64,000 nt of DNA from Zancudomyces culisetae HAW-14-8 (Eukaryota > Fungi > Kickxellomycota). Below the pieces are notes generated by a model. That model did no database searches, was not told where the DNA came from, and saw only the letters and a list, made by a program, of their open reading frames with translations. Below are positions 20,204-47,332 of the stretch, one piece after another. Location: contig JBNJNM010000012.1 of NCBI GenBank assembly GCA_052426225.1, positions 1,302,001 to 1,366,000 on the forward strand. The letters run 5' to 3'. The first letter of the stretch is position 1; the number at the start of each line of letters is the position of its first letter. A program made the translations under genes and the position numbers.

Positions 20204-21450
20204 TGTCGCAATAAGCCGAATTGTAATGCAAATTCGAATAGTGTACAAGAAATTTTGTTGTACACTCATTGCGGAATGCCAATTTTTATAATTTTTATTG
20301 TCGTTTAAATTTTTGTTCAAATTAATTTCGACTCAGCATGAAATAAATTCTACATGCTGAGTCCATTCAATAATGATGATTCTAGTACGAAATATGTTTT
20401 CATACTGAATATCAAATAATTTTAATGATTATGTGTTCCCACACATAATCTTAATTGCACGTATGCTGCAATTATGAAACAAAACTATTAGTATACTTAA
20501 CAGCATAATAATAGTGTATAGTTAATTTATTATATTGAAAAACTAGGTTAGCATTTAAGTTTTATATCATATATATAATTGATATAGTAGTCTATTAGGT
20601 AACTTTTCCATGTCCTACTTTACGGATTAAATAGTATAGTTAATAAACTCAATAAAACAAACTTTAAAAGTATATACATATAATAAATAACCAAACATCA
20701 TGAACTATTTCTTTTATACCAAGAGTAAATCCAAGAGGGATTCTGAAACTAGCTCCAGCCTGAGCACGGCTAGTAGCATGGACCAAGAGACTGGGGTTTT
20801 AAGTCCTCGGACTCTTGGGGAGTTGACAGAAAGTGTCCGTCAACTCCAAATCCGTAGGAGCCCAGAACCAATGTCCGTGAGCAGTATCTCACCGACATTG
20901 TATAGGGGAAACAGCTCACCCGAGCACCTTATTATGCACATCACACTACGGGGTAGTGGTGCATCTTCATCAAGTGGTCATACCCGAACTGGTATGACAC
21001 ATGATGAACTTAATAATCATGGTTACACGAATTATGATTATTACGACAACACTAATGTCGCATCAATGAGCGACAGGATGTACATCACACGGGTGCTTTC
21101 GTGTGATGTGCAAAGACTTACACGGTGTTTTTCACCTATGAGGTTTTTCCCGTGTAAATCTCTATTAATTTTTATATTAATTTTATATTAATTTTATCAA
21201 TGTTTCTTATATAGTTATAATATAGTTAGTTTATTATAAAATATGAGAGATCAGATATAAGGCTAATTATCTGACCTACTGAATTCAGTATCTTTTTTTT
21301 TTAGTTTATAATCAAAAATAAACACATTAAGCCATTGAATCTGGGTCCTACCGTCTTCAGGTAGTTATTAGATTATAGTATAAACTTTCAAAATACTTGT
21401 TAAGGCGGTAAAGTCGGGTAAAACCGACAAGGAAAAATTAAATTCCGTCA
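20204..21450 (+). mobile_element. Long LTR-like unit D carrying a small ORF
   Basis: TGTCGCA start; homologous to 34461.. and 46298-47332; right end approximate. Confidence 0.65.
20700..21191 (+). CDS. Ser-rich protein of unknown function inside unit D
   Basis: 163-aa ORF; a 58-codon core is conserved with 46424..47020, mostly with synonymous differences. Confidence 0.6.
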   Translation: MNYFFYTKSKSKRDSETSSSLSTASSMDQETGVLSPRTLGELTESVRQLQIRRSPEPMSVSSISPTLYRGNSSPEHLIMHITLRGSGASSSSGHTRTGMTHDELNNHGYTNYDYYDNTNVASMSDRMYITRVLSCDVQRLTRCFSPMRFFPCKSLLIFILILY

Positions 21451-21452
21451 CT

Positions 21453-24400
21453 TGTCGTATAATAATACGATGGGAACTAAAATTGATTGAGATTTATCAT
21501 CTCAATTTTCATCTATCTAGTTATTGATTTTTATAGGTTATCTTTATTTTTAGATTGGACCTTTTTCCCCTTGTGGTTTTTGTCCAACGATTATTAGTTA
21601 GTTAGTTTAAGTTATAGTTTCATAGTTTTATATCAGAAATCGGGGGTAAAAGGAATCCCCCACTTCATTCAAAATAAATTTTATCTTTCAACAAAATAAT
21701 ATGGTGTCTAGCTACATTATATACTATAAGTACAACATTATAAATAAATATACAATATAGTAGTAGTTTTAAATACATTAATAATCAGAATAAGAATAAA
21801 CAATAGGGAAAGCTGTTTATACGACAGTGGCGCTCCCAGCTAGGCCATAGCTAGAAAAACTAAATAAAAACTATATAAAGAACTTGAGTACATTGTGAGA
21901 ATGAACACCATACACTTATTTGAGGCAGCTTCTGGTGAGGATCCTGAGGAATGGATCGCAGACTTTTGTCTAGTAGCTAAATTAAATAAGTGGGATAAAG
22001 ATGATTGGATAGACTTTATTCAATTGTATTTAGGCAAAATTGAGAAGTTATGGTATAAGAAGCATAAGACGGCATTTAAGGATTGGGCCGACTTCAAAAC
22101 GCAGTTCACTACACAGTACCAAGTTAAGGAACAGAGATTTCAGTATTATGAAAAGCTCAAAAATATTGACCAAAATTCCTTTGAAACAGTTGAGGAATTT
22201 GAGTACAACTTGGAAAATATATTGGATAAAGCGGGGATAAACGAGGACGTAGCCAAGATAGACTGGTTACTGAGCGCACTTAATACAGATTCAAGAAGTA
22301 TAGTCAAAGAATTCAGACTTAAAACCTGGAAGAGTATTATAGAGAAGTTAAAGAAAGTTCAAGAAGAGGCTGTCCACAAGCAAGTACAAGTGGATAATAC
22401 AAGTAAAGTTCAAAAACCCAGCATAACCACAAAAGGGAAATCCATAAAGCAGTTGACCAATGAAAATGTAGGGTATGAACAGATGGTCAAAAAGATGGAT
22501 GAGTGGAGTCTGAACATTATTTCAAAAGTTGATGAGACTATTGAAAAAAGATTAAAAAATACAAATGTCTTTCCTTACAAACGGGAAAACCCCAGAGTTG
22601 TCAAATGTTATTATTGTCATCAGTTAGGTCACCGAAAGTATGAATGCAATAAACTCAAAGAACAGCAGGCTCAGGAACAAAGTAAAATAGATAAGGACGT
22701 AAGTTTTTTAGAAGTTTGCAGCTCACAACAAAATGACAATGAAGTACTAGCAGTACAAAGAACACCCCGCACACAGGATACCAAAAAGCCGTACAACAAG
22801 ACTAAGCCGTTACAGCTGAGACAAAAAGGGTACACACCCATAACAGAATATGACAGGGCTATAGAGAGACAAGATATAGTTATGGAAACAGGTGAACCCG
22901 AAGTAGTTTCAAGAATAGGAAACACAACAGCTGGCCTTGACTCGCGTAGAAGAGAGACATCAAAAACTGGAGAAAAGTTAGAAGATAGTGTTAAGCAAGT
23001 AGAGAAACCTAGGGCAAAGGGTGTACTAGGAATGGCAGAAGGAATACCGCCCTTTTCGTTAAAAGAACAGTTATCAAGTTGGTGTCCCAACATATCTTTT
23101 CCACAGTTGATGGATGTTTCACCTAGTTTAAATAACGAGATGATAAGTTTGTGTAGACGTAGTAAAAAAGCTGAATTAAATGAAATAAGATTTGACATAC
23201 CTAGAGTTACAAATTGCAAGATTAGAATATCAATTTTTGAATCAAACTTTTGGGCAGTAGTAGACACAGGTGCAGCGTGCTCAGTAGCTGCACCGGGATT
23301 ATTAGAACAGTGGGGGCTCATAGCGGAAGATGAAGGTGATCAGATTATAATTACGGCCGATGGAAATAAGCACTATTCGTTAGGTAGAATAATGGATGTC
23401 CCATTAATGATAGGCAGGTACAAGTTCACAGTCAATCTGACAGTAATGGATAGAAACGACAACACGCTCATTTTAGGTACAGACTGGTTGTTAGAACACA
23501 AGGCCCAATTAAATCTGAAGACATCGGAAATGAAACTGCCAGTTGAACAGTTTGAGTTGATAGTACCTTTACATACTTCAGCTCCCTCGTTGCCCTCTAG
23601 CAAAAATACATCCGAGCTTTATTATGTTCTTAAAGAAGAAGTAGCAGAAATAAATGGGCTGCAGCGCTACAATGATATGCGGTTTGACTAAATTAAACAA
23701 GATAATAGTGATATCTTTGCCGATGACATTGAGCAATTGACTCAGACTGAGGAAGCTGAACATAGAATATTGTTGAATGACGAAACCCCAGTAAAGCTTA
23801 AACCATACAGAATTCCGCACCATTTGTATAGCAAGGTACGCGACGAACTCAAGAAAATGGAAGAGAAAGGAATAATTTCCCAGTGTGTGTCCGAATGGTG
23901 TGCACCAGTTGTTACCATTTGGAAAAAAAATGGCAAACTGCGTGTGTGCACTGATTATAGGAGGCTGAATTTACAAACAAAGAAGGATTCCTATCCGCTG
24001 CCGACGATGGAGGATATTTTCATGGCATTGTCTGGTTCATCAGTGTTTTCAACTCTAGACGCTCTTAGCGGATTTTGGCAAATCCGCATGGCCAAAGAGG
24101 ATAGGTTGAAAACAGCGTTCTCTATTCCGGGTACCGGGACGTACTGCTATAATGTCATGCCATTCGGTTTGACAAACAGTCCCGCGTCTTTTCAACGTAT
24201 GATGGAGAAGGTTCTATCTCCTGTGCTTTGGAAGTTTGCTGTAGTCTTTGTGGATGATATTATCATCTACTCAGAAAATATTGAAAGTCATTTATTGCAT
24301 CTCCAGGAAATATTTGATTTATTGCGAAAAAGTAAAGTACAACTACATTCTGACAAGTGATTCATTGGAATGAAGGAGTTGGAATACTTGGGACATGTCG

Positions 24401-26764
24401 TGTCGCCACAAGGTCTAAGGACAAGTAAGGCTAAGGTGGAATCAATAGAAAAAGAAAAATTACCTACCACCGTAAAGGAGTTACAGTCCTTTTTAGGGCT
24501 AATTGGTTTTTATAGAAAATACGTAAATGGGTTTTCTAAAATTGTTGCGCCATTGTTAAAACTGTTAAAAAAAGGAACAGAATGGAAATGGACACCTGAA
24601 TGTGGACAAGCAGTTACAAAAATCAAACATGAATTAACGAATGCACCAACCTTGGCACATCCTGACTGGAGCCGAGAATTTATAGTAACTACTGATGCAT
24701 CAGTTACAGGCATTGGAGGTATATTGTCACAGAGTTACGATGAAGGAGAAAGACCAATTTGTTATGTGAGCCGAATCACAAACCAACATGAAAGAAATTA
24801 TTCTATTTCTCATTTGGAAGGTCTTGCAGTTGTCTGGAGTATCAAGAAGTTAAAGTATTATTTATGGGGTAAGCACTTTACCGTGCGTACTGACCATAAG
24901 TCATTAATTCAACTTTTCAATTCAACAGAAATTACAGGTAGAGTAGCCCGTTGGGCTATGATACTTCGTAACTACGATTATACTATTGTCCATTGCGAAG
25001 GAAAAAGCAACCCCGCAGACGCCTTATCACGTTTAGGACCAGAGATTAGCAAATCAAATAGAGATAAGATTGATATATTTACTTTGGATTTTTTATACTA
25101 TCAAGCTATTATTAACTATCTGAATGACTATAGTTACCCACGAAATGCAGATGAAGGGTTTAGAAACAAGTTAAGAAATAGAGCTAAAAAATACAGAGTG
25201 AAGGATGGAAAGCTAGTAAGGATTATCAAAGGGAATATAAAAGAGGTGCTACATGAAAAAAATATAAGGGAAACTATAGAAGCAATTCATGAAGAGAATC
25301 ACGATGGCATACAGAACACTTGGAGGAGAACCAAGGAAAAATATACAGGTGAAGGTCTTTTTGACATGGCGAGAACAGTAGTAGGACAATGTCATACTTG
25401 TCAAGTCTATAAAGGAGGAAGGGAAAAAAGGAATCCCCTTCACCCTATTCAGGCAAATAGGCCATTCCAGATTTTTGGTCTAGACGCAGTTGGTCCCATA
25501 AGACCAATTTCAAAGAAGGGAAATAGATTTATTTTAACTGGCATAGATTATATGACAAAGTGGCCAGTAGCGCAGGCAGTAGAGAACATTCAGTCAACGA
25601 CCATAATCAACTTTATCATAACACACATTGTGCAACATTTTGGAGTTCCAGATCAGATAATTACCGATCGAGGAGCAGGTTTTGTAAGTGAGTTTACTTC
25701 TAAAGTATATGAATATCTTAACATAAAGCATACACCTACGACCTCGTACCGTCCACAGAGCAATGGACAGGTCGAGCGTCTTAATCAAACACTTAAAAAC
25801 GTATTGGTAAAGCAATGTCATCGAGATAAAGGCAACTGGGATCTGCATCTCTGGAAAACGTTATTAGCTGTAAGAACAATGCGAAATCGGACGACGTCAT
25901 ATTCACCAGCAGAATTATTGTATGGGGTCAGATTACTCACTCCTACGATTTGGAATCCTCCTGCTGAACCTAGTGATATTGAGTTAGCAATTAAAGAAAG
26001 AATTGAATTCATCAAAACGGACATACCAGAAATGAGATCAGCAGGTTATGCAAATAGTATTGCCTCAAAAGAAAAAGAGAAGAAGACATATGATAAAGGA
26101 GTTAGAGAAATGTATTTCAAGGAGGGAGATATCGTGTTAAAGCTTACTGAGCAACCGCAACCAAAGTTAGAGCAGATATGGGAAGGCCCATATCATGTAC
26201 AAAGGAGACTAAGATTAGGTGCTTACGTTATTGCGGACAGCGAAGGAAATCGTGATATCGTAAACGGAGATATGTTAAAGCTCTATAGTCAGAAACAATA
26301 CATGCTTCCTGAAGTAAGTAACACTCTGAGATCCAAGTTACAACGCTTTAGAGACACTAGGCCGGCCAGTCCAATCTGGAGGAGGGGTTCTGTCGTATAA
26401 TAATACGATGGGAACTAAAATTGATTGAGATTTATCATCTCAATTTTCATCTATCTAGTTATTGATTTTTATAGGTTATCTTTATTTTTAGATTGGACCT
26501 TTTTCCCCTTGTGGTTTTTGTCCAACGATTATTAGTTAGTTAGTTTAAGTTATAGTTTCATAGTTTTATATCAGAAATCGGGGGTAAAAGGAATCCCCCA
26601 CTTCATTCAAAATAAATTTTATCTTTCAACAAAATAATATGGTGTCTAGCTACATTATATACTATAAGTACAACATTATAAATAAATATACAATATAGTA
26701 GTAGTTTTAAATACATTAATAATCAGAATAAGAATAAACAATAGGGAAAGCTGTTTATTCGACA
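21453..26764 (+). mobile_element. Ty3/Gypsy element B, full length; LTRs 21453-21826 and 26391-26764; TSD CACT
   Basis: 374-bp LTRs (one mismatch seen); PBS TGGCGCTCCCAGCTAGG at 21828; PPT GGAGGAGGGG; ends 9 nt before tRNA-Phe. Confidence 0.95.
21901..26400 (+). pseudogene. gag-pol of B with two in-frame stops
   Basis: Three same-frame ORFs (to 23691, 24360, 26400) with CCHC, VDTGA, FVDD, TDAS, HHCC, DDE and WEGPY motifs. Confidence 0.92.
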
Positions 26765-26773
26765 CACTAAAAT

Positions 26774-26846
26774 GGGAGCTTAGCTCAGCTGGGAGAGCGT
26801 GCGACTGAAGATCGTACGGTCCCGAGTTCAATCCTCGGAGCTCCCA
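26774..26846 (+). tRNA. tRNA-Phe(GAA)
   Basis: GGGAGCT/AGCTCCC acceptor stem; TGCGA-CTGAAGA-TCGTA anticodon arm; TTCAA T-loop. Confidence 0.95.
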
Positions 26847-26848
26847 TT

Positions 26849-26930
26849 GGTATCATGGCCGAGCGGTCTAAGGCGCCGCACTCAAGTTGCGGTCTCGAAA
26901 GAGGCGTGAGTTCGAATCTCACTGATACCA
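26849..26930 (+). tRNA. tRNA-Leu(CAA)
   Basis: GGTATCA/TGATACC acceptor stem; CCGCA-CTCAAGT-TGCGG anticodon arm; long variable arm; followed by TTTT. Confidence 0.95.
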
Positions 26931-27501: not shown

Positions 27502-28111
27502 CTAATATAATAAACTTAATAATTAACTATATAATGACTAAATTGTTCCCTCGTGTATCTGGCCTTAGTCACATTCTGGGAATCTTTATTTTCATGACGT
27601 GTTTGTGACATTCACAGAATGACTACTGCAACATTCATAGATTTTAAGTGGTAACTGTCGCAGATTTCCAGATGTACTACGTGAATTTAACATTACCATC
27701 TACGATTTACTTCAATTTTGATATTATGTAAAATGCGGTGATTTAAATTTACGACATCATATTACTATATACCAATAAGTTTATTTTAACATTTACCCAA
27801 TCTTGTTAATTAAATTTTTGTAAATTATCTTAACCAATCTATGATTATTTGTCTCTAATTTACTTATAAAATATTGATCTAAAAATCTAACAGATTAACA
27901 CATTATGTATTAATTAATTCTAACTAGAAATTATTTTTACACATACAGTCATAAGATTATATATGAACCTGAATTTATTGTTTTAGGTCAGATAATCTAA
28001 AGTTAATCTGAATCACAAATATACTGAATCATATCTATACATTAATATCATTGTAGTAAATATTAATATTTTATTAGCTAATAAATGCTCAGATACAAAA
28101 ATACTCTTATA

Positions 28112-29663
28112 CTGTGAGTTTCAAAAATGTATCAAAATATTGATAATAATTTTCAATGTATAATATCTCGCTCAATAATATCCAGAAATTATATATTTTT
28201 AAATTATATATGCACAAATGTTATAATTTAATTTTTTATAGTAATATTTTAAATGTTTAAAATTAATATAATAATTATGTAAAAAAAATATATTGTAACA
28301 GTTTTGGGACTTAAAATAAATATAACATAAAAATATTCTCACTGCATTTAGCCTGGTTAAATGCCTCAATTCTTTTGAGCATACCATCTATGAGGCCAAG
28401 TATTGTTTCCACTGAAATTAAATTCCATTCCGTTTCTATGCGCTCCCTTAATTCGATCATCCCGGACGGAGGTTTACTGTATCTATTTAGGCGTCTTTTG
28501 ATGATTGCTCATATAGTTTCGATTGGGTTTAAGTCTGGACATTGTGGCGGCCAGTCCAATGTATTATAGTACTGGTTTTGAAGCCAGCATGTAACTAACT
28601 TTGAGGTATGATAGGATCATTGTCATGTTGAAATATTATTGACTTATGATCCAACTTGTAGTACTTTATTGTATTGCTAAGCTCGTCTTTTAAAATGTTT
28701 AAATAATCTTCCTTGTTTTACATTCCTTCTATTCGGCACATGTAGCCAGTTCCAAATGCTGTGATGCATCCCCAAATCATTAATAATCCTCCAGCGTGTT
28801 TTACGGTCTGGTTAATATTGTGCGGCTGTAGACTCACACCATCACGAACCCAAGTCCATTCATTTCCATCATATCCAACTCGGTTGATTTTAGTTTCGTC
28901 GGATCAAACTACTCGCCATCAATCATCAGTAGTCCAGTGGTGATGAGATTTTGCGAATCTCAACCTTTTTGCAATATTTTTAAGGCTCAGTTTCGGTTTG
29001 GATGCCTTCTTTTTTGCAGCGGCTTTTAGATCATTAAAAGCCATATATATTGTAGACTTACTAGCACTTACAACATTATCCATGTCTAACTTCTTTTGTA
29101 TCGAAGTAGCAGATCGATACTCTCCAGATAATATCATCCTAGTACATATTCGCTTGCTTTGGGGTGAAAGCTTCGCTGGACGATCGCGTTTATTAGCCGG
29201 TAAATTGATATTCATTGCTGCTTTTATTCTGTATATTGTTGCTTTACTAACTCCATTTTCTATAATGATATGGTCAATGTTACTGCCTTCAAGTAACGCG
29301 TTTTTAATATCCAGTTTACGTTGTTCAGATATCATATTTTAAAAAATTATTTTATTGATTAGTATAATGTTGTTAATATTAAATAGTAAAAGTTTTACAA
29401 ATTTATTATTTGAATTTATAAAGTTATGATAGTTTAAATTTTTTTTTTGAATAATTCCCAATATTGTCTCATTTTTACAATTTTTTCAATTTATAATTTC
29501 ATAATGAATTTATAACCAATATAAATACAGTTTATAATAAAATATAATATAACATTTGTGCATTATATAATATCAATAACATATAATTTCTGGATATTAT
29601 TGAGCGAGATATTACTCTTTAAAAATTATTTTCAATATTTTGTGACATTTTGGAAACTCACTG
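28112..29663 (-). mobile_element. Tc1/mariner DNA transposon 1, decayed
   Basis: TA-flanked long imperfect TIRs C(T/A)GTGAGTTTC.AAAATG..TAATATCTCGCTCAATAATATCCAGAAATTATAT. Confidence 0.9.
28330..29335 (-). pseudogene. Tc1-like DD34E transposase
   Basis: SDETK, KHAGGLLMIWGC, FQHDND and DWPPQCPDLNPIE motifs with stops and frameshifts. Confidence 0.88.
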
Positions 29664-29665
29664 TA

Positions 29666-32600
29666 TAAGCTAAGCAAAGAATAATGAATACGCCAGAGGT
29701 CTTTGAAGTTGCCAATGAGGTCGATCCCAAGGAGTGGATTGAAAAATATAGGATATTCGCAAAGTTGAATAAATGGAATCCGGAGGACTGGATAGACTTT
29801 GTGCAGTTATATTTGGGCAAGCGAGAAAGCATTTGGTACAAGAGAAATAAGACAGGTTGTACATCATGGGATGAGTTTACAAAACAGTTCATAGTTAAAT
29901 TTGGACCTAAAGACCAGAGTTTACAGTATCTAGAAAATTGTAAAGCATAAGGCAAGAGGATTATGATACTATCGAAGAACTAGAATATCATTGGAAGAAC
30001 TTTTAGGAAAGTTAAGCATTAAAGATGATAACCACAAACTGAATTGGTTGATTAGCGTTTTATCGGCTGAGGATAGAGATAAGGTTAGAGATTTAGGTTA
30101 TGAAACTTGGAAGGAGATCATAGATCATATTAGTAGTGAGGAGCAAAGAGGAATAACCCGTAGAAGAAAGGAAGGTAAAAGTGGGAAGGTCATAGTAAAC
30201 CGACAAAGAGTAAAGTTGTGCTACCACATAAGGGCAAGCCAATAAGAGATATCGCAGAAGAGAAGGTAGGGTATGATGTTATGCTAAGGAAGATGGAAGA
30301 GTGGAGTGTTAAATTGTTGTCAAAGGTTGACGAGTAGTTGAGAACAGGCTTAGAGAAAGTCGCCGCCCACGACATTTTGGCTATCTCAAGGGACCTATTA
30401 AGTGCTACTCATGCGGAGAAGAAGGACATAAAGCCCCTGAATGTCCCAAAAAAGACAAAGGCCGAGATAAAGGAGTAAACTATATTGAGTTAGCACCTAC
30501 AGAGGAATTAAATAATGAGTTGTTTGATGTACAGCGGGGATTACCAACACGAAATACTAGGAAACCCTATGATAACATCAGGAGTTCAACTATGCCGAAG
30601 GCTAAAGTAGCACCACCGCAGGAGAGAAGAAATCCCAGTGAAATGGAAGTAGAGCACGCCGCTGTACCACAAGTAACCAGGGAACCTAAGGAAGCCGACA
30701 AGCAAGAGGAGGTGGCTAAAACAAGGCAAAAGTTGATACCAAAGATTACTGAGGGAGTGACACCTTTCAGTCTAGAAGAAGAGTTGAAAAATTTCTACCC
30801 CCACATTAGTCTGCCACAACTGATACAAGCAGCACCCCAGTTGTCCCAGGAGGTAAGCCAACTAACAAAGAAGGTAAGAAAAACGGAGTTAAATGAAATT
30901 CAGGTACGGTCAGCCAAACTATCTAACTGCAAGATCGAGATTCAGATATTTAATAAGAGGCTGTGGGCTATAGTGGATACAGGTGCCGCCTGTTCAGTGG
31001 CGACACCGAAGTTGGCCTATGTATGGGGTCTTAGTACTGAACAACATGAAGGGCAAGTGATCATTACGGCGGATGGAAAACGCCACACCCCACTTGGATT
31101 AGTTAAAGAAGTGCCGGTACAAATAGGGAAATACATCTTCTATGTGGATATAACTATAATGGATAGAAAAGAAGACGTACTGATTCTAGGAACGGACTGG
31201 TTATATAACCACCGAGCAAGTGTGGACTTGGCTAAAGGGCAGTTAAGTTTACCCATCGGTCAGAGAATGTTGATATCACCCCTCCATATGCGCACTGTAG
31301 CGGAAAAACCGGAGTGGGAAGAGACGGAGGTTTATCTAATACTTGGAACTCAGCAAAGGGAAGAGCAAGAAGAGAATATAGATGATCCAAGGATAGTAGA
31401 GTTGGTCGCAGAAAATCAGGATTTGTTTATTGAGAATGCTGACCAACTAACCCAAACAGATGTTACACAACACACTATTGCTTTGACCACGGAGCGGCCT
31501 ATCAAGCAGAGGCCCTACCGTATTCCATATCACTTATTTGAGAAAGTTAGGGCAGAATTGGATATGATGGAAAGAAATGGTGTAATATCGCCGTGTGTGT
31601 CCTCCTGGTACTCACCTGTAGTCGCTGTATGGAAGAAGGATGGTCGCTTACGTATATGTGCAGACTATCGTAAGTTGAGCCAGGTGACGAAAAAAGACAC
31701 TTATCCTCTTCCTACAATCGAAGACATCTTTATGGCACTGGCGGGTGCTACTGTTTTCAGTTCCTTTGACGCCTTGAGTGGGTATTGGCAGATACCCATG
31801 GCGCCAGCTGACCGGGATAAGACGGCTTTTGCAATCCCGGGCAGTGGAACTTACTGTTACAATGTGATGCCATTCAGGCTCACAAACAGCCCAGCATCTT
31901 TTCAAAGAATGATGGAGCAGGCTCTAGCTCCTGTACTTTGGAAAACTACTGTCGTTTTTATTGATGATATAGTGGTGTACTCAAAATCAATGGATAAACA
32001 TCTGGTTGACGTACAAGAGGTGCTGGACCTTCTCCGAAAAAACAAGATACAGCTACACAAGAAGAAGTGTCGCCTTGGAATGGAAAAACTCACGTACCTC
32101 GGGCATACCGTGTCAGCCGCAGGAATCTCTACTAGTACGGATAAAATATAAGCAATTAAGTCAGCAATCATTCCGAGTAACATAAAAGAGTTGCAGTCGT
32201 TTCTAGGGTTAACCGGGTACTATCGCAAGTTTGTAATAAACTACGCGAGAATAGTATCACCTCTACTCAAACTATTGAAGAAGAATTGTCACTGGGAATG
32301 GACAACAGATCACCAAGCTGCAGTTGAGGAGTTGAAGAAAGCCTTGTGTGATGCGCCGGTACTATCTCACCCTAATTGGTCAGAAGAGTTTATAGTCACT
32401 ACAGACGCCTCTGTAGTAGGAATTGGTGCTATCTTATCTCAGCAATTCGAGGATGGTGAAAAGCCGATCTGCTTCTTAAGCCGCATACTAAACCCACACG
32501 AACGGAATTATTCTGTGGCTCATTTGGAAGGGCTTGCCGTCGTATGGGCGGTCAAGAAGTTGAAGATGTACCTATGGGGAAAACACTTCACCATACGTAC

Positions 32601-34460: not shown

Positions 34461-35130
34461 TGTCGCATTATTAGCAATTTGTACAAGAGTACGTGGATGT
34501 GCCTGAAAATGGTACACATAGTACGAAAATGCAAATTCATTTTTGTTTACTTTTTTTAAATAAATTCAAATAATTTTGAGCTCAGTATGCAATCAATTTT
34601 TTACTGAGCTAGTTCAATAATGATGAATGTAAAATGTAAAATGATCCCAGGCATTTTACATTTATCATTAATAACAAACAAATTATTAATATATTATACA
34701 ATAGTCATATTTTAGTATTTAGTTTATAATAGTGGTTTAACATTTGAATAATATATTTAAGGAGACGTATGGATGACATATGAAAACCTCATCCATGTCT
34801 CGATACGGAATATTATAATAAAACAATTAAATAAAATCAAATATAAACCAAAAGATATATTAGCAATAAAGTTTTTAAACAGTTGGATTGGAACCAAGGG
34901 TGACTCCAGGAGAGATTCATACACTTCTACCAGCATGAGCAGGGGCAGCAGCATGGATCAGGATGCAGGGGTATTAAGTCCCCGCACCCTTGGTGAGTTG
35001 ACAGAAAGTGTCCGTCAACTCCAGATCCGTAGGAGCCCGGAAGAAATGTCGGTACAAGAATAGCATAGTGTTGAAAGTTAGGATATACGTTTTATAATAA
35101 AAATATATTTTATACCCAAAAAATATAACA
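34461..35130 (+). repeat. Chimeric unit I: 5' part of the ORF-bearing LTR-like unit fused to the last ~78 bp of an LTR A
   Basis: 34461-35053 is near-identical to the reverse complement of 46740-47332; 35053-35130 matches ~14809-14886. Confidence 0.85.
34773..35063 (+). pseudogene. Truncated copy of the LTR-borne ORF
   Basis: Nearly identical to 46424..47020 up to EEMSV, then cut by the fusion. Confidence 0.65.
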
Positions 35131-35135
35131 GCGAC

Positions 35136-35594: not shown

Positions 35595-36222
35595 CGATGT
35601 TGAATTCGTTTTCATTTTTTAGTACTAGTCCAATAGGATTTTCCCAAAAAACTTCCACTAATATCAATCACGGTTCCCTAGAAGGGTGGTTATTACTGAC
35701 ACAGGATTTACCATTTCTAGCCAGTTAACCACTATCTATAAAACCCCCTCAGAAAGAACACAACTGGACAATTTCCACAATTTTTGGTAAAAATAATTTT
35801 ATTTAAAAGAATTCCTCCCAAAACCTGGAAAATATAGCCAAAATGGCCCTTTCCTTACACTAAAAAAATAGTATTACGCCTCTCTATATATGTTTATTTT
35901 TACTTTTAGTGTGGTTTTGGTCGGATTTACAAATTTTTCAATTTATACTAATAATTTACTAATAAAATTGATTAAAAATAAATCCACTAATAAAGTATAA
36001 AATCGATTCGACTAAAAAATAAATCGATTTGTACTATTAAATTGGCTGTAAAATTGACAAAAATTTATGACATGGTCATAATTTTTGTACTCTAAATTGA
36101 ATTGCGCAGGAAACAATTTTTTCAAAATTGATTTCTCTGCTATTTTGCTGCAATGAAAGCGGTAAATTTAAGTTGATGCTTTTGCATACAACAATGTCCC
36201 CCCTCCAGCTTTCGCGCCGTGA

Positions 36223-37509
36223 TTAATTCCTGTATCTTCTGATTTTAGTTCTTAAAGAACTTGGAACTACTTCGGGGACCATTCTTTCTGAATACTTGTA
36301 GGCCTTTAATCTATCGCCGTTCACTGTATCCATGTTTCCGTCTGGGTCTTTGATCAAATACACGCCTTTTGTGTAACACTTGATGATTTCGTAAGGACCT
36401 TCCCAGATTGGGTCAAACTTGCCTCCAGGTCCACTTATTCTTTTTAATACTAGGTCTCCTTCTTTGAACTGATAACGCTTTACCACTTTGTCGTATCTCT
36501 GCTTCATTACTGACTTTGACTTTGCGTTATTTTCCATAGCTTTTTCTCTCATCTTTGGAATACTGATTTGCACGACTCTCATTCTCTGCAATATCTCTTC
36601 CTCTAAGTTATCAATCTCAGCCGGCGGCATCCAAGTTGATGGTGTTTGCATTTTTACACCATATAACATCTCTGATGGACTGAACCCAGTAGATCTGTTT
36701 TTCATTGATCTAACAACCAGTAGGGCTTTCCAAATATAACTATCCCAGTTGTCTCTGTCCATTACGCATATTTTTGCTAAGACATTCTTAAATGTTCTAT
36801 GAAATCTCTCGACTTGTCCGTTAGTCTGAGGCCTGAAAGCAGTGGTTGGTGTGTGTTTTATTCCCAACTGCTTGTATAACTCCGTGGTTATTTCTGATAC
36901 AAATGAACTGCCTCTGTCTGAAATTAACTGAGTTGGTACTCCAAACTCCTGTACTACCTTACTTAACAGAAATTCTACAATGGTTTCTGACTGGAAATTT
37001 GTTACTGGTACCGCAATGGGCCACCTAGTAAAATAGTCTATCGCTGTGATGATAAATCTATTCCCAGATTTTGATATAGGGTTAATGGGTCCTACTACAT
37101 CTATACCCATGATTTGGAATGGTGCAGGCGCAATTATCGGATGCATTTCCGTTCTTCTAAATTCGCCTTCTTCATATTTTTGGCACCGTTCGCATTCTTG
37201 TACCACTTCTTCTACAATTTTACGCAAGCCTCTTCCTACATATTTATTTTTCACTCTATTGAGAGTGTTTAGAATCCCTTCGTGTCCTTCTTCATGAATT
37301 TCTCTTATCATTAACTTAGCATTGTCGCTGTGTAACACTTCTCGGATTCCTGATTCCCTAGAGTACTTGCATACTTTACCGTTTACTAGTTTATACGGCT
37401 TTGCTCTTTTTCTTAGCTTGGCTCTGAACTCCTCATCAGCTCGTAGCGGGTAGCTGAAATCTCTGAGGTAGTTCTCAATGGCTTTATGATGTAAGACATC
37501 GATTACCAT
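36223..37509 (-). CDS. Gypsy integrase
   Basis: HEEGH..CERC, GID, SDRG, VER and WEGPY motifs; 428 aa open. Confidence 0.88.
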   Translation of the reverse strand: MVIDVLHHKAIENYLRDFSYPLRADEEFRAKLRKRAKPYKLVNGKVCKYSRESGIREVLHSDNAKLMIREIHEEGHEGILNTLNRVKNKYVGRGLRKIVEEVVQECERCQKYEEGEFRRTEMHPIIAPAPFQIMGIDVVGPINPISKSGNRFIITAIDYFTRWPIAVPVTNFQSETIVEFLLSKVVQEFGVPTQLISDRGSSFVSEITTELYKQLGIKHTPTTAFRPQTNGQVERFHRTFKNVLAKICVMDRDNWDSYIWKALLVVRSMKNRSTGFSPSEMLYGVKMQTPSTWMPPAEIDNLEEEILQRMRVVQISIPKMREKAMENNAKSKSVMKQRYDKVVKRYQFKEGDLVLKRISGPGGKFDPIWEGPYEIIKCYTKGVYLIKDPDGNMDTVNGDRLKAYKYSERMVPEVVPSSLRTKIRRYRN

Positions 37510-37526
37510 TAGTTCCTCATACTTTG

Positions 37527-38465
37527 TTATCTTGTTTTCCTTTCTATCTCTATGCAGTTAATTTCTTGTTTTTGGTCCTTCTGCCTCTTGTAGCACGCTG
37601 CGGCCTCATGCCCTGGCCTTTTGCAGTATGTACATTCCACTTTCTTGAACGGTCTTCTTGATTGTGGAGCAGACTTTTCAGAGTAATTTGGTCTCTTTTC
37701 TAATCTAGCTAGGAGATTAAGTGAAAGCTCGTCAAACTTTTTAATCAACGCCTCGTACATATCTGGACCCTCATTAGATTTATGTACCTTCATCACCTTC
37801 CTACTAGTGCTTTTTGGTTTTTCTGATGTTTCCCTGACAGTAGGTAATATTTTCTCGACATCCTCTTCTGCCTGGATTATTGCTATGGCAGATTTGACAT
37901 CCTTAACTTTGGCTTTTAAAATTTGCCTTTGATACTTGGGGTTAAGAGCGTCTACAAAAAACTTAAGTCTGATCCGTTCGTCTTTAATATCGACTGTTGA
38001 GACCAGTTTGCTGAACTCCGTCTCAAAATCTTCAAAGTCGAGGTAGTCACTTTGTTTAAGGCTTTGCAGTTGATTCCACGCTCGTGCCTCTCTGTCTTTA
38101 CCTTCAAACTTTTCCAGGAATTCCTCACGAACCTTTTTCCATTTTTCTAGTTTAGACTTATTTATCTTGTACCATCGAAGGTCTTTCCCCGTTAAAAACA
38201 ATTCTAAGAAATCAATCTTGTCTTTTTCCATCCAGCTGTTGATCCTAGCCATTAGCTCATACCTATCGAGCCATTCTTCCACGTTTGTAGTAGTGTTGCT
38301 ATCGAACATTGCTACATCTGGAATTCCTCTGTTGAACGTAAAGTTCATATTTAGAGGTATTCGGTCAGTTGTTGGTTCAGGAGCGCTCGTCTCCTGTACT
38401 TCGACCTCCTCTGATTCATCATCAGTAGTATCCTCTCTCAACTTTTCTGCTCTTTTACTAAACAT
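37527..38465 (-). CDS. Gag with CCHC knuckle
   Basis: VEEWL..W..FL.G..WY pattern; CTYCKRPGHEAAAC. Confidence 0.88.
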   Translation of the reverse strand: MFSKRAEKLREDTTDDESEEVEVQETSAPEPTTDRIPLNMNFTFNRGIPDVAMFDSNTTTNVEEWLDRYELMARINSWMEKDKIDFLELFLTGKDLRWYKINKSKLEKWKKVREEFLEKFEGKDREARAWNQLQSLKQSDYLDFEDFETEFSKLVSTVDIKDERIRLKFFVDALNPKYQRQILKAKVKDVKSAIAIIQAEEDVEKILPTVRETSEKPKSTSRKVMKVHKSNEGPDMYEALIKKFDELSLNLLARLEKRPNYSEKSAPQSRRPFKKVECTYCKRPGHEAAACYKRQKDQKQEINCIEIERKTR

Positions 38466-41356
38466 TTTGATTTTGTTGTTAAACTTTAAATAATTGATAA
38501 TTTTTTGTTATTTTGTAATTTTATAAATTTTATATTTTTATGTTTTTATGTTTAATTTTTTAACAATATTTTTATTATATATTATTTTATTATAATAATT
38601 ATTTTTTTTTTTTTTTTATTTTTTTTTTTTTTTTATTTTTTTTTTTGTATTATTTATTGTTGTAGTTTAGTATTGTTTAGAAAACTTGTTAATCCGTTGA
38701 AAGATGGACAAACTTTTAGATTTATAGGATTGAATTTCGATTTTGTTTGATTTGGAGTCTGATTTGATTTTTAGTATTTCGACTCAATTAATTTTAATTT
38801 TTAATTTCTTTGCTGGTTTTGATTAGTTTTACTTTGTTTTAATTTGGACTGTGTCCCTGCTTTTTATCTGCTATGTTATTCTGACTTGTATTCATAAATT
38901 TAATTCCCAATTTAAGTTACCAAAAGTTCAGTCAGTTTTGAAGTGATGAACAGTTTGGGTTTGATGTTTTACACAACTCCCGAACGGTTTGGAAGGGAGG
39001 ACCTCCCCGCCCAAAAGATTGGACATCGGATTTGTTTTACCCCCATTTCATATTTCCACACTAGATCTTTCGAACGTTGGAGGGATTTAATCTAGTGTAA
39101 TAAAAGATTATTGAATATAATCTTTTCAGTATGTTTCGGTTCCGAATAATATTAACTAGAAAGTAGAAACTAGTTAAATGATATCTACCGTTCTGAAGAC
39201 GCGCCGCTCTAACAGAACTCATAAGACGACAATATTGTGCATCTTACCTTGGTACCACTATTGGGTTTGGTTGAAATAAATAATAAATTCTACCTCTCCC
39301 TAGCCCCTTGGGAATGTTGAACTTACATCACCCAAATGACTGTAGAATACCTAGGAATTGACCTCCATGGTATCCTTTACTCTTGGAGTGCTTTGGCTAC
39401 TCCGTAATTGGTTATACTAAGACCCCCATCTAACTTATCTATCCTTATTTTGATAGAATGGTTAGGCCGGACAAAGAGAGTAAACCAGTTCTGCTCCTGT
39501 CCCATTAATGACGTAGGTTGATTCCTGCAGGGTTATCACCTCGTAAATATTTATCTCACCTTGTTAGCTACTTAAGGTGTAGAAAGGTCCCCAGAACTGA
39601 AAGTACTCTTACCACGTAGGTTGGAGGGTTTGGAATACTTCCGTTTGTTCTACCGAACCCAAGGTGTCCCCTTTTTGGGTACTACCATTTACTGACTTAC
39701 TGGGTAAACTTTTTAGTTTCCCGATATTATTAGGCTGATCTTGTTTAAATACTACTACCAAACCTAATACCAATTTAGTTCCATATTTTACGGAACTTTA
39801 CCACAAAATTCCTCCACCAGTTTCATTCACTCGGTTTTGGAATCGAGTATTTTATTACTCGTATAGTTTCTGGGTTAACTGGTAGGGTAGAAATTATTTC
39901 CCCAGTTATTTCCTTACTTAAAACCAATTAAAGAAAAAATTATTCCTTTAAAACCACCCGAGAAGTCTGATTCAGTTTCCCTAAATCTTGAAAAAGGATT
40001 TGGATAACTAACTTCAACTTCTCAAAACTTGGGAGTGTATCTGGAGATAGATACAGGATCTCCCTATTTAAAGTGTGAAGTTTATTTCTACCTTTAAACT
40101 TCTTACACTTTTACTACTGGAGTTCAACTCCAGGTAGTGTCCCAGCAAAACTGTGGCCTAGAATAAGCTTGCATATAGCTCGCTTAAACTTACCAAGTGA
40201 CTTTAGTAGGTTGGTTAACTCTTACCTTCCCACTGTCACTGGTAGCTTTTCTCCACTTTAAGGATGTTATTCTTAAAGTTAGCTACAATGTTGCCGGTCT
40301 AGTAACCTATGGTCGGGCTCCTAGACTCGGTGTAGTAAGAAAAAATTAGGATTTTTACATCCCATTATCCTCATTACTACTAGTGGCTTCTACTAAGACT
40401 AAATGGCATTGCATTTAGTCCCTAGACGCCGGTGATATGGTGTAAAACCCACCGCAGAAATCCCCAGTACTTCTCAAAGAAGTCCGTCTCATTTCTGTTT
40501 TGAGCCCACCTTTGGTGACTTGTGTACATGTATTTTTAGGTTACTTACACATAATTTTGCTTTTCAGCAGTAAACCCCCAGTATCCATCTTTCTTCTCCC
40601 AAGTATTGGAAATTCTCCGTACAGCTAGCATTAACGAAAATTAACTTTCTTTAGCTATCACCGTATCTAGGAGATTTCAATATTTGGGGAATCCAGACGA
40701 ACCCGTCTCGTTTCCGCTTCCAACCAAAAATATGCTTATCGGCCTAAAAACCCATAAACATACCACCAACACCTGGGAAGTATCCAAAAGTATGCGACAT
40801 AACGCACATTTTGCTTCAACTCCCGCAGGTAACACAGCATTTTAAGCTGTTCTGGGAAAAGTTCCCAAAGACATTTGTTGAATTTAACTGTTTGGAAATG
40901 TTCTATTAAACTTAATTAATATCCCAAGTCCCAATTTGTTAAATTCCCCAAAAGCCTAAAAAGAAAAGGTCGGGTAATGTGGGAAATTCAATTACATTTA
41001 GGCTAAAATGTAAATGAAACCCGAAAAAGTATTGAGAAAAATCTTAAAGGGAAAAATGTATTTAAAGCCAATGTTCCTAGCCCCACTGAAAGTGTTTCGC
41101 ATTTACCAGCGCGAGTCCCTAAAAGGGCTTTCGTGGTTACCTTACCTGGTCCGGTGGTTCAGAGAATTTATTCCTTATTTAAAAGGAACAAACCTCCTAC
41201 TAGCCCACATTGGCCCCAGATGGTGTAAGGTCCAACTCGTCTCGTAAATGGCTTCTAGGCGACATAGCCGAAGCTTTTACGGCAAATTTTTGGTCATTAG
41301 AAAGAAAATCTTTCTGACCAAAAATTTAACTTTTCTCCCAAATTTTCCTCATACCG

Positions 41357-41374
41357 TTCCCGGCAGAGCCCCCA
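41357..41374 (-). promoter_or_regulatory. PBS of K (tRNA-Pro-like)
   Basis: TGGGGGCTCTGCCGGGAA, 2 nt after the 5' LTR. Confidence 0.75.
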
Positions 41375-41980
41375 TTTGTTGAATTCGTTTTCATTTTTTA
41401 GTACTAGTCCAATAGGATTTTCCCAAAAAACTTCCACTAATATCAATCACGGTTCCCTAGAAGGGTGGTTATTACTGACACAGGATTTACCATTTCTAGC
41501 CAGTTAACCACTATCTATAAAACCCCCTCAGAAAGAACACAACTGGACAATTTCCACAATTTTTGGTAAAAATAATTTTATTTAAAAGAATTCCTCCCAA
41601 AACCTGGAAAATATAGCCAAAATGGCCCTTTCCTTACACTAAAAAAATAGTATTACGCCTCTCTATATATGTTTATTTTTACTTTTAGTGTGGTTTTGGT
41701 CGGATTTACAAATTTTTCAATTTATACTAATAATTTACTAATAAAATTGATTAAAAATAAATCCACTAATAAAGTATAAAATCGATTCGACTAAAAAATA
41801 AATCGATTTGTACTATTAAATTGGCTGTAAAATTGACAAAAATTTATGACATGGTCATAATTTTTGTACTCTAAATTGAATTGCGCAGGAAACAATTTTT
41901 TCAAAATTGATTTCTCTGCTATTTTGCTGCAATGAAAGCGGTAAATTTAAGTTGATGCTTTTGCATACAACAACGACACA

Positions 41981-42062
41981 GTCAGTGTGTCCGAGCGGTT
42001 AAGGAGATAGACTTGAAATCTATTGGGCTATGCCCGCACAGGTTCAAATCCTGTCGCTGACG
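41981..42062 (+). tRNA. tRNA-Ser(TGA)
   Basis: GTCAGTG/CGCTGAC acceptor stem; ATAGA-CTTGAAA-TCTAT anticodon arm; long variable arm. Confidence 0.95.
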
Positions 42063-42065
42063 AAA

Positions 42066-42136
42066 GCGTAGATGGTTTAGTGGTATAATTGCCGCCTGCC
42101 ACGCGGCAGACCCGGGTTCGATTCCCGGTCTACGCA
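42066..42136 (+). tRNA. tRNA-Gly(GCC)
   Basis: GCGTAGA/TCTACGC acceptor stem; GCCGC-CTGCCAC-GCGGC anticodon arm; GGTTCGATTCC. Confidence 0.95.
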
Positions 42137-42357
42137 TAAAATTTTGTACATGAATCAACAATGTATTTTACGTTTCATACATATTGTAATATAAAATTTT
42201 GCCATATCTTTAGTAATAACCCACAATAAACACATGGCGAGTTTAGTATTAATATACTTCTAAAAATCATTTAATTCTGACGATCAGGTAATATACGAGC
42301 GTTAACAACCAATAAGGACATTGTTAGCATTTCATAACTGAATATACTTTACAAATA

Positions 42358-43964
42358 CAGAGACTTAAAAGATTGATATAAGTTTTTGATGTTCATTCAA
42401 AAATTATTTATCTCACGAATACTATATCATATCACTATAAAAATTACAATTATTATTCATTTATATACCGTGTATTACCTATCAAAATTTTATTATACTT
42501 GAACCAGCCAAATAACTGTAGTTATACTTTTTGTAATAATATTTTATTTGAACAATTTTTATGCTAATAATAAAAAATCATATAAATTTATTAGACTAGT
42601 ATTTAGTATATCCACCCCTGGCTTTCAATACTGCATTAATTCTTGCAGGTGTGCTAATGATTAGCGACATACTCTAGTCACGTGATATATTATTACACTC
42701 GTCTTGTACGCGGTCCCAAAGTTCGTACATCCCTTTTGGTGCATTTTCGTGATTTGATAGCCGTCTTTTCAAATTGACCCATAGATGTTCAATTGGATTT
42801 AGGTCAGGTGACTGCGCTGGCCAGTCAAGCATCTGAATGGAGTTAGTTTGCAACCAGGCTTTGTGATTTTCGCGTTGTGTTTTGGATCGTTATCATGCTG
42901 AAAAATTGTACTTTCCCTGTCTAAGTTGTACCACATCATTAATTTTACCAGTTCGTTTTCAAGAATATCACAGTACAATTCTGCATTAAGTCCGCAATCA
43001 ATTTTAGTAAGATATCCTGGGCCTTCTGAAGTCATGCATCTCCATAACATGATTGAACCTCCACCATGTTTTATAGTTTTTTTAACATGATTCGGTTTTA
43101 AATGCTCCATTGTTTTTTCCAGCACCACATGCGCCCATCTGACCCAAATCTGTTAATTTAAGTCTCGTCAGACCATATCACATGTTTCCAGTCTTTTACA
43201 GTCCAATGCTGATATTTTTTAGCAAATGCAAGTCGTTGTTTAATATGGCCTAATATTAGCATAGGTTTTTTGACCTTAGGTTTTGCACTTAAACCATATT
43301 TTTTCAAGCTATTCCGCACTGTTTGAGGAACCACTGATACGCGGCCATTATCCTTGAGAAATTTTGTAGCGTCTGTCGCTGTATCAAATTGTCCAGACGT
43401 AATTTTCCGAATTATTAATCGCTCATTTGCTTTTGTCAATTTAATTGGGCTGCCAGGAGTTAAATTTTTTATTGATGGACGATACTTTTTTTTTATGTTA
43501 GTGATTGTTCCTTTACTAATAGATAGTTTAGATGCAATTTGGCTATATGAGTATCCATTATCCAGCAGATTTTAACACTCCAAACTTTTTCATTATTTAG
43601 TTTTTTCATCGTATTTAAATTGATCAAAAATTTAATATTAATAATATAATGTATTGTGTAGATAATTGTAAGTTATATCTAGTAACATAAAATTTTATTA
43701 AATGATATCTATCAAAATGATAAAGATATCACCAAAATTGATGTTTTAATTTAAAACCAAAAAATTGTTCAAATAAATTAATTTTACAAAAAGTATAACA
43801 ACTGTTGATTGGCTGGTTCAAGTATTCTAAAAATTTGATAGGTAATATACGGTATATGGATGTATAATAATTGTAAAATTTAAATTAATACGATATGGTA
43901 TACGTGAGATATAATAATTTTTGAATGAACATCAAAAACGTTTGAACAATTTTTTGAGTCACTG
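42358..43964 (-). mobile_element. Tc1/mariner DNA transposon 2, decayed
   Basis: TA-flanked ~200-bp imperfect TIRs CAG(A/T)GACT.AAAA.ATTG..TTTTTGATGTTCATTCAAAAATTA. Confidence 0.9.
42596..43609 (-). pseudogene. Tc1-like DD34E transposase
   Basis: WSDET, KHGGGSIMLW, FQHDNDPKH, SPDLNPIEHLW and GGYTKY motifs with stops and frameshifts. Confidence 0.9.
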
Positions 43965-43994
43965 TATTACACAAGAAATTTATTTTATCAACAC

Positions 43995-45559: not shown

Positions 45560-45827
45560 TGTTGTATGCCTATAATAGGCGAATCATTTCCATTATTAAA
45601 CGTGTTTTGTAATTTTTAGTTAGATTTTTTGTAGATTTTATTGTAGATTTTATTGTATAAAATTGAAATTTTTGGTAAACTATATAAATGTCCTCTTTTG
45701 CAAAATCATAATTTACTATAAAATATTCGCGGCATATAGTAAAAGGTAAGTAAAATGACCCGTCCCGTGTGTTATTTGGTGTAAAAAACACTAAATGGGA
45801 GCTTAAACATAACAACACACAAGAACA
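45560..45827. repeat. Solo LTR-like unit L5
   Basis: TGTTGTATG start (as in the K LTR terminus); ends in AACA at 45817 or 45827. Confidence 0.55.
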
Positions 45828-45829
45828 AC

Positions 45830-46292
45830 TGTTATATAGTGGCTAGAGCTACCTCTAGTCATTATATAATTTTAACTTACCAGTTATTCATATACTTTTA
45901 TATTAATATTTAGGTTTATCATTTAATATAAGATATTATTTATTATAGGTTATTTATTATATTATGTGTTGCCTAGTTTTTTTTATCCTTCTAGATTTTT
46001 TCTACAGCAACACTCTAGTTCAATTTAATATATATTTTATAGGATTTATATTTAATTAGTATAAAATTATTTCAGAATATTGTAATAGTCATTTTTAAAA
46101 TGTATAAATAAGGCTAGATATTCATTTAGTATTACATTATCAAATAAATATAATTTATTTAAATTTGGTCTATTTAATTTAGCATAGTTACTATAGTGAA
46201 AACAATTTTAAACATAGTACTTAGTATAGTATTCCTATCAAAATAAATATATAATAATCAATATAGCGAAGTAAACCTGTGTTTTGCTAACA
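45830..46292 (+). repeat. Solo LTR L6 (J-related), TSD CAAC
   Basis: TGTTATATAGTGGCTAG...CTAACA with CAAC on both sides. Confidence 0.85.
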
Positions 46293-46297
46293 CAACA

Positions 46298-47332
46298 TGT
46301 CGTATAAAATATTATACGTTATAGATTTCTCATCTATTGTAATTAATAGTGTTATTTTATTGGTTATTTATTTAATAGTTTTTGTAGTTGATTTTGTAGT
46401 ATTTAAATCAATGAAATTTTTAGTTAAATAAATTTGTCGTCTCTTAAATATAATAATAGTACATATAAATATTTATAAACAGTAACTATTAGCGGCCCGA
46501 CTCGTGTAGTGCTTGGAAGCCAATAGCTTTCAAGTAGGACGTAAAACATTTCTACTACACGACAAACATGTGTCGCATAATGTGAAGTATCACTACTTCC
46601 ATTAGCGCTACCATCACGTGTTATACCGGTTTTGGTACGATCACTGATGGTTGATGCACTTCTATTGCGTAATGCAATGTGCATCGAGGGGTGCTCGGGT
46701 GAGCTAATACCCCTGTACAGTGTCGGTGAAATTGTACTCACCGACATTTCTTCCGGGCTCCTACGGATCTGGAGTTGACGGACACTTTCTGTCAACTCAC
46801 CAAGGGTGCGGGGACTTAATACCCCTGCATCCTGATCCATGCTGCTGCCCCTGCTCATGCTGGTAGAAGTGTGTGACTCCCTCCTGGAGTCACATTCGGT
46901 TCCAATCCAACTGTTTAAAAACTTTATTGCTAATATATCTTTTGGTTTATATTTGATTTTATTTAATTGTTTTATTATAATATTCCGTATCGAGACATGG
47001 ATGAGGTTTTCATATGTCATCCATACGTCTCCTTAAATATATTATTCAAATTTTAAACCACTATTATAAACTAAATACTAAAATATGACTATTGTATAAT
47101 ATATTAATAATTTGTTTGTTATTAATGATAAATGTAAAATGCCTGGGATCATTTTACATTTTACATTCATCATTATTGAACTAGCTCAGTAAAAAATTGA
47201 TTGCATACTGAGCTCAAAATTATTTGAATTTATTTAAAAAAAGTAAACAAAAATGAATTTGCATTTTCGCACTGAGTGTACCATTTTCAGGCACATCCAC
47301 GTGCTATTGTACAAATTGTTAATAATGCGACA
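46298..47332 (-). mobile_element. Long LTR-like unit L7 (1035 bp) carrying a small ORF
   Basis: TGTCG...CGACA termini; homologous to units D and I. Confidence 0.8.
46424..47020 (-). CDS. Ser/Thr-rich protein of unknown function inside L7 (true start may be downstream)
   Basis: 198-aa ORF; conserved core MDQDAGVLSPRTLGELTESVRQLQIRRSPE..ISPTLYRG..SPEH. Confidence 0.6.
   Translation of the reverse strand: MTYENLIHVSIRNIIIKQLNKIKYKPKDILAIKFLNSWIGTECDSRRESHTSTSMSRGSSMDQDAGVLSPRTLGELTESVRQLQIRRSPEEMSVSTISPTLYRGISSPEHPSMHIALRNRSASTISDRTKTGITRDGSANGSSDTSHYATHVCRVVEMFYVLLESYWLPSTTRVGPLIVTVYKYLYVLLLYLRDDKFI

Follow-up and report, generated by a model that had tools for sequence, protein, structure and literature searches.

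A conserved reading frame inside solo LTRs of Zancudomyces culisetae is probably the N-terminus of a Ty3/gypsy-type Gag

Solo LTRs carrying a constrained reading frame

We analyzed a 64,000-nucleotide window of the gut fungus Zancudomyces culisetae HAW-14-8 (GenBank assembly GCA_052426225.1, contig JBNJNM010000012.1, positions 1,302,001 to 1,366,000 of the forward strand; all coordinates below count from the first letter of this window), which carries three related open reading frames (ORFs) inside long terminal repeats (LTRs). In this window, nested Ty3/gypsy elements have accumulated in front of tRNA genes at 26774, 41981 and 52795. A preliminary description had located the ORFs at 20700-21191 (copy D), 34773-35063 (copy I) and 46424-47020 (copy L7), where we found them as well, and had assigned them to single LTR-like units of 1.0-1.25 kb. 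However, these units turned out to be composites of neighboring LTRs. Segment 20204-21450 consists of LTR D and solo LTR J, segment 46298-47332 of LTR L7 and solo LTR K, and segment 34461-35591 of an L7-type fragment, the 3' end of LTR A and solo LTR H1.

When the insertions of the three clusters were peeled off one at a time, matching 4-bp target site duplications (TSDs) were obtained for 9 of the 10 units (chance about 0.006 each), and the sole failure was the chimeric copy I. D is a solo LTR of 845 bp (20204..21048, plus strand, TGTCG...CGACA) that is flanked on both sides by the TSD ACAC. With J and the full-length element C removed, its empty site lies 6 nt before a tRNA-Phe gene. L7 is a solo LTR of 762 bp (46571..47332, minus strand) with the ends TGTCGCAT..ATGCGACA, for which the TSD CATG emerged once the neighboring element F had been peeled off. 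Both D and L7 display the TG...CA ends, the short inverted repeat and the TSD of a Ty3/gypsy LTR, and the earlier idea of a coding stretch that lies within an integrase-mobilized LTR and persists in solo LTRs was borne out. Copy I represents the 5' part of an L7-type LTR (34461..35053, plus strand, 96% identical to L7, no matching TSD), which was cut after codon 34 of the conserved core described below. Its ORF part (34953-35054) retains 34 of the 58 core codons. It is joined to the 3'-terminal 78 bp of an A-family LTR (35053..35130, plus strand, 96% identical to 19727-19804), which is the source of its stop codon.

The end of L7 is supported independently of the window, since a contig of sequencing run X1 departs from the match exactly at 46571. 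In this contig, the L7-type LTR end adjoins letters which, judged by eye, resemble the minus strand of a tRNA D-loop and anticodon arm with a GTA anticodon and the start of an intron (putative tRNA-Tyr). This junction may reflect either an insertion into a tRNA intron or an unusual primer site. The core was also covered by contigs of runs X2 and X3, and run X4 yielded none.

The ORF ends at 21191, 35063 and 46424 fall outside the real LTRs, within unrelated neighbors, and the long ORF tails are read-through into adjacent LTRs. The false tail of D comes from J (21056..21450, no strand assigned, 395 bp, TSD CTAA) and that of L7 from K (46298..46564, no strand assigned, 267 bp, TSD AACA), and neither of these solo LTRs is related to the copy it adjoins. 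From the motif MDQ to the LTR end, the frame measures 271 nt in D (20778..21048, plus strand, 90 codons and 1 nt) and 270 nt in L7 (46571..46840, minus strand, 90 codons), with no stop in between.

Protein searches and cluster look-ups uncovered seven core-bearing proteins, all of them hypothetical proteins of Z. culisetae that are 92-96% identical to the window copies. Six of the seven are short and resemble LTR copies; the only long one, P0004, is a Gag-protease. P0010 represents a third subfamily, which also starts at MDQ and has 90 residues up to an LTR-end-like 'AT', so that the same layout is kept in three subfamilies. Past the LTR end, the sequences of D, L7, P0002, P0006, P0010 and the run X1 contig differ. 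At residue 90/91 the proteins diverge into HVCRVV (L7), LCRVV (P0002), YCRRVG (P0006), HVVSD (P0010), NTNVAS (D) and MASATG (P0004), whereas P0003 departs earlier and neither P0001 nor P0005 reaches the LTR end. Within the LTR, the ORF contains no conserved stop codon, and its tails vary by copy.

Over the 58-codon core beginning at MDQ, D and L7 differ synonymously at 18 codons and by amino acid at 8, exactly as counted by hand before. The Nei-Gojobori method yielded a nonsynonymous rate (dN) of 0.088 and a synonymous rate (dS) of 0.94, which corresponds to a ratio of 0.09 (Fisher p 3e-9) for core limits that were set after inspection of the data, and 22 of the 33 base differences occupied third positions. 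For D codons 1-100, a range that does not depend on these post hoc limits, dN/dS was 0.31 (p 3e-5). Beside the core, we obtained 0.87 for the 26 codons before and 0.89 for the 20 codons after it. The purifying selection proposed before is real, and its onset is at MDQ and not at upstream ATGs. Those at 20700, 47020 and 34773 were rejected as starts, since they are not common to the subfamilies and no constraint was seen before MDQ. Four of the five alternative frames across the core contain stops in D as well as in L7, and the antisense frame sharing codon positions gave a ratio of 0.21 but has stops. The flanking DNA had been called much more diverged, which held in part: the core is 81% identical, the tail 71%, and the LTR before the ATG 70% over aligned columns. 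Over its full length, the latter segment is 59% identical compared with 52% in a shuffled control. When five L7-type copies were compared with L7, residues differed at 19 of 116 positions before MDQ, at none of 266 in the core and at 6 of 110 in the tail; these counts share L7's own changes and are not independent. The L7 core is identical in copy I (over 34 codons) and in P0001, P0002, P0005 and P0006 (over its whole length).

The ORF part of the LTR has a GC content of 46-49%, compared with 28% in the remaining LTR. AATAAA motifs are located 90-140 nt upstream of MDQ in both LTRs; such motifs in AT-rich DNA suggest that the ORF would fall in U5 and thus outside the RNA made from the 3' LTR. 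A splice acceptor suspected at about 34872-34882 was not conserved: the aligned place in D carries no AG, and P0005, with Y-I-W where L7 has N-S-W near this position, appears to have lost the AG too. Pfam searches with the three ORFs returned nothing under E 0.06, and AlphaFold2 predicted no fold for the 90 residues (mean predicted local distance difference test score 53, predicted template modeling score 0.13).

Relationship to Gag and the LTR end

P0004 is a partial gene model of Z. culisetae comprising 515 amino acids and deposited as OMH80607.1 (AX774_g5952). Its residues 1-109 are 92.7% identical to D (92% for residues 20-109 against the 90 codons from MDQ), and the match ends at the LTR end. 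Beyond this point, P0004 continues with a capsid-start block, a CCHC knuckle (Pfam zf-CCHC, E 1e-5, above the cut-off) and a protease motif (gag-type aspartyl protease, E 3e-5, just below the Pfam cut-off), which is the order of a Gag followed by its aspartyl protease. Seven Smittium proteins can be aligned with P0004 over the capsid-start, knuckle and FQYDSG protease blocks. For this alignment, 8 of 34 sequences were used; P0012, P0029 and weaker matches were left out, and P0038 came from a cluster look-up. Three of the seven Smittium proteins also carry an integrase, which is preceded by RNase H in two of them (P0009 and P0017), as in the gypsy order; these two models show protease, RNase H and integrase without a reverse transcriptase domain, and P0004 ends in the protease. 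Feature matches in the ESM Atlas, all below 0.9, pointed to Gag/protease-type clusters and may serve as a lead only. A search with whole P0004 among proteins of near length returned only the protein itself (1 of 7992 candidates scored). A metagenome scan with the core alignment gave 73 pattern matches and a viral-contig scan with P0004 gave four, none of which was confirmed as a locus.

Since the gene model could have spliced the LTR onto an unrelated gag, we tested the junction. Read on from the last base of D, the complement of the CCA end of tRNA-Ser(UGA), which is encoded in the window at 41981..42062 on the plus strand, translates into MASATG, and this is the sequence of P0004 residues 110-115. 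Among 90 trials of tRNA ends and frames, this was the only one with six matching residues and no other gave more than two. MASATG is encoded at 1 of 127,970 window positions. The primer site was recognized from the protein and in the D subfamily. According to this match, the frame very likely crosses the LTR end and the predicted primer site unbroken. The match also shows D to be an LTR with its U5 end at 21048, the ORF running in the sense direction of the element. We infer that the frame is also unbroken between P0004 residues 116 and 242 (capsid), that translation starts at MDQ, that the tRNA-Ser is used as primer and that the L7 subfamily shows the same read-through.

CRM1 nuclear export signals (NESs) of class 1a have five hydrophobic residues in a 2-3-2-1 spacing. 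A predicted leucine-rich motif of this pattern lies at 20814..20852 (plus strand) in D, where it reads LGELTESVRQLQI, and at 46766-46804 (minus strand) in L7. The spacing noted before was confirmed and occurs once in the 515 residues of P0004 (shuffle p 0.02); export as its function is predicted. The four serine-proline (SP) sites described earlier are present as well, at core positions 9, 28, 38 and 47. P0010 keeps the motif with the exchanges L>F and L>I, so that the spacing is kept in all three subfamilies. Six of the seven Smittium proteins (P0007, P0008, P0009, P0011, P0017 and P0038), two of which share a cluster, carry such a motif 11-51 residues ahead of the capsid start, and P0032 is without it. 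A 29-nt run that is identical in D and L7 (20820-20848) overlaps the motif and folds as a hairpin, with z-scores of -3.1 in D and -1.7 in L7 (60 shuffles); many other LTR windows gave z < -2. The permutation p-value for a run of nine identical codons was 0.07. An amphipathic helix or an overlapping RNA hairpin could explain part of the motif conservation.

A CRM1 signal would be a reasonable prediction for a Gag protein. In the available excerpts of the sources cited here and below, the prototype foamy virus Gag has an N-terminal leucine-rich, leptomycin-B-sensitive NES (PMC3033328) and the p10 region of Rous sarcoma virus Gag a leucine-rich, leptomycin-B-sensitive one (PMC3856414). These retroviral signals were tested, whereas the Zancudomyces motif is known from its spacing. 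In the excerpts on Ty1, RNA export proceeds via Mex67.

A probable gag start inside the LTR and its alternatives

Taken together, we consider it likely that the conserved 'small protein' is the N-terminus of Gag, which starts inside the LTR of a Ty3/gypsy-type family, and not a separate gene. The preliminary description had favored a free-standing accessory gene or cassette, but the ORF has no stop of its own in the LTR and the P0004 frame continues into Gag and protease. According to the Gag scenario, gag would start within the LTR, about 270 bases (90 codons) from its end, and the frame would continue past the LTR end and across the predicted tRNA-Ser primer site to encode capsid, zinc knuckle and protease. 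Transcription would begin upstream of MDQ in the 5' LTR, which would supply the promoter, the start codon and a disordered tail at the N-terminus of Gag. In active lineages, selection on Gag would maintain the first 58 codons and would be the reason for the low dN/dS. Recombination between LTRs would leave solo LTRs with a stump, the frame of which runs into whatever adjoins. The leucine-rich motif would serve Gag as a CRM1 export signal, like those of foamy virus and Rous sarcoma virus, and integration would be aimed at tRNA gene starts, as for Ty3.

Several observations weigh against this scenario. The read-through is seen in a single protein, P0004, which is a partial gene model known as protein. 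About 90 capsid residues present in five or six Smittium relatives are missing from this model, and its protease is cut short, so that predicted introns are probable; a stop between residues 116 and 242 could be concealed by one of them. The window contains no full-length element of the D/L7 family. The L7 LTR is one base shorter in frame than that of D, and therefore L7-type elements would need a 1-nt spacer before the primer site; such a spacer is present in elements A and C, but none was seen for L7, and the only other L7-type junction, that of run X1, is unlike P0004. In five of five other window elements checked, the open frame of gag falls short of the LTR, and this layout would therefore be special to the D/L7 family. 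Finally, homology between the Smittium and Zancudomyces motifs was not significant, since 133 and 120 of 300 shuffles scored as high.

Short conserved motifs amid free linkers are common in disordered Gag tails. This is one of the points to be weighed against an unlikely alternative, in which the frame that starts in the LTR extends over the primer site and stops ahead of the capsid, forming a short ORF of its own, or joins gag by splicing only, and the gene model merged both. The product might then be an export or regulatory factor, for example one like CERV of Cer1 or Rev. P0004 shows signs of skipped sequence, strong constraint is limited to 58 codons with none in the tail, and the motif lies about 200 residues ahead of the capsid in P0004 compared with less than 60 in Smittium. 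In addition, the excerpted text of PMC10309623 describes an accessory export protein, CERV, in the gypsy-type element Cer1. However, no stop interrupts the frame at the predicted primer site, and in the Smittium relatives Gag itself bears a motif of equal spacing and has N-terminal extensions that reach about 190 residues.

It is improbable that a Gag module consisting of the CRM1 export signal and its flanking SP phosphosites moved into the LTR, so that each solo LTR is a mini-gene and the expressed stump influences full-length elements in trans, through control of copy number or through RNA export. If true, this would be a fungal gypsy element with an LTR-borne regulator. We also consider it improbable that the stump of 90 residues, irrespective of its origin, is additionally produced by solo LTRs and has an effect in trans, for example as a dominant-negative brake on the family, like Ty1 p22/p18, or by competition for CRM1. 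Solo LTRs retain promoter-side DNA, the start codon and the motif, and the core is identical in L7 and the four other L7-type copies covering it completely. In the excerpted sources, Ty1 is restricted by truncated Gag products (PMC4551931) and NES-defective foamy virus Gag is dominant negative (PMC3033328). In contrast, the stump lacks a stop codon of its own and has an arbitrary tail in each copy, copy I is cut inside the core, and solo LTR D shows L at a position occupied by P in P0004, P0003 and L7, as decay would give. Moreover, the stump is without the capsid domain through which p22 acts, and the conservation of young copies is inherited from the active element, with no selection acting on the copies. 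Capture of a host-gene fragment, or a non-autonomous cassette that integrase mobilizes, would agree with the GC-rich ORF part, the TG..CA ends and the TSDs, but it is very improbable and largely refuted, since all seven core proteins found are LTR-copy-like Z. culisetae hypothetical proteins or, in the case of the only long one, Gag-protease, since there is no Pfam family for the core and since the primer-site peptide follows the LTR end.

If gag starts inside the LTR, the D/L7 family would resemble Ty1. The gag/LTR overlap of Ty1 covers only about 14 codons, whereas it would be 90 codons in the D/L7 family and would include the 58-codon conserved block and the NES-like motif. The gag gene of Ty3 starts after the LTR, and the D/L7 family would be unlike Ty3 in this respect as well as in its predicted tRNA-Ser primer, which is not the initiator Met. 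MMTV (mouse mammary tumor virus) sag and HIV (human immunodeficiency virus) nef are LTR-overlapping accessory genes that are located in U3 and have their own stop codons. The D/L7 coding sequence likewise overlaps the LTR, but it occupies the 3' third and runs out into the primer site. The start of Ty1 gag in the 5' LTR is described in the available part of PMC3522557; Ty1 is an element of Saccharomyces cerevisiae and belongs to a different superfamily (Ty1/copia, Pseudoviridae). Ty3, Tj1, Tyl3/Tyl6/Ylt1 and DGLT-A of yeasts and Dictyostelium are reported to insert at most a few bases away from the starts of tRNA genes (PMC5911963, in part). The D/L7 family shares this preference, and its Smittium relatives have RNase H before integrase. 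Its zoopagomycotan host is absent from the hosts in the accessible part of that table, and its TSDs measure 4 bp, compared with 5 bp for Tyl3 in the accessible part of PMC5014426.

In the open-access literature, narrow phrase matching retrieved no paper on the D/L7 family or on so long a gag/LTR overlap in gypsy elements, which is weak evidence of absence. Such an overlap is not described in the available portions of 10.1101/741611, PMC4551931, PMC10309623, PMC5014426, PMC7175516 and PMC6875170. As far as the literature was searched, so long an overlap is new, as are its conservation across three subfamilies, the reading of a tRNA-Ser primer site as protein and the host group. According to the Gag scenario, conserved 'small genes' of solo LTRs may turn out to be stumps of Gag, six of which were deposited as Z. 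culisetae hypothetical proteins, and the gag/LTR overlap of the Ty1 type would extend to 90 codons in a gypsy lineage. The LTR end, the integrase attachment site and the primer site of this family would have to double as coding sequence, and its Gag would offer a testable candidate CRM1 signal in a retrotransposon.

Insertion before tRNA genes and other elements of the window

Upstream of the tRNA-Phe, tRNA-Ser and tRNA-Val genes (20204-26846, 34059-42062 and 45830-52868), at least eight LTR types form stacks at distances of no more than about 10 bases, all with 4-bp TSDs. This appears to be Ty3-like targeting of RNA polymerase III (Pol III) genes in a zoopagomycotan and would extend such targeting to an early-diverging fungus. 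The tRNA-Phe gene (26774..26846, plus strand) is the target of the cluster of D, J and C. Nested in the target of D, element C (21453..26764, plus strand) is a full-length Ty3/gypsy element of a different family with an LTR pair of 374 bp (99.7% identical), the TSD CACT and Pfam matches to gag and protease. The tRNA-Val gene (52795..52868, plus strand) is the target of the cluster of H2, K, L7 and F. Element F (47334..52786, minus strand) is a full-length Ty3/gypsy element between L7 and its target tRNA, with identical LTRs of 461 bp, the TSD ACAC and the order gag, protease, reverse transcriptase (RT), RNase H and integrase. An Rfam scan of the window returned five tRNAs and nothing else. Four of these genes form tandem pairs, Phe-Leu (26774-26930) and Ser-Gly (41981-42136), with 2-3 bases between the genes, and are possibly transcribed as dimeric Pol III transcripts.

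Element E (35598-41972, minus strand) has identical LTRs of 597 bp and a TSD. The integrase (37509-36223) comes directly after gag (38465-37527); protease, RT and RNase H are missing, and the approximately 2.9 kb ahead of gag contain no minus-strand frame of 70 codons. It is a recently moved non-autonomous gag+integrase element. Element A is present, together with about 770 bp of upstream flank, in inverted copies that are 99.8% identical (1-3821 and 13781-17601), and these represent a recent second copy that shares its flank, or else a duplication or assembly feature.

The trinucleotide TGG does not directly follow the 5' LTR in elements B (12158-12174), F (52310-52325) and E (41360-41376). 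It comes after three bases in F and after two in E, and B has none within 16 bases. Tf1 is a self-priming element, and B may be primed in a similar way. Two Tc1/mariner-type transposons with long inverted repeats are located at 28106-29669 and 42354-43968. The former adjoins the gag of element G on its upstream side, and self-comparison of the window did not reveal a 5' LTR for G. Finally, a short repeat of the upstream region and the first bases of the tRNA-Phe gene is located at 45790-45806, just before solo LTR H2.

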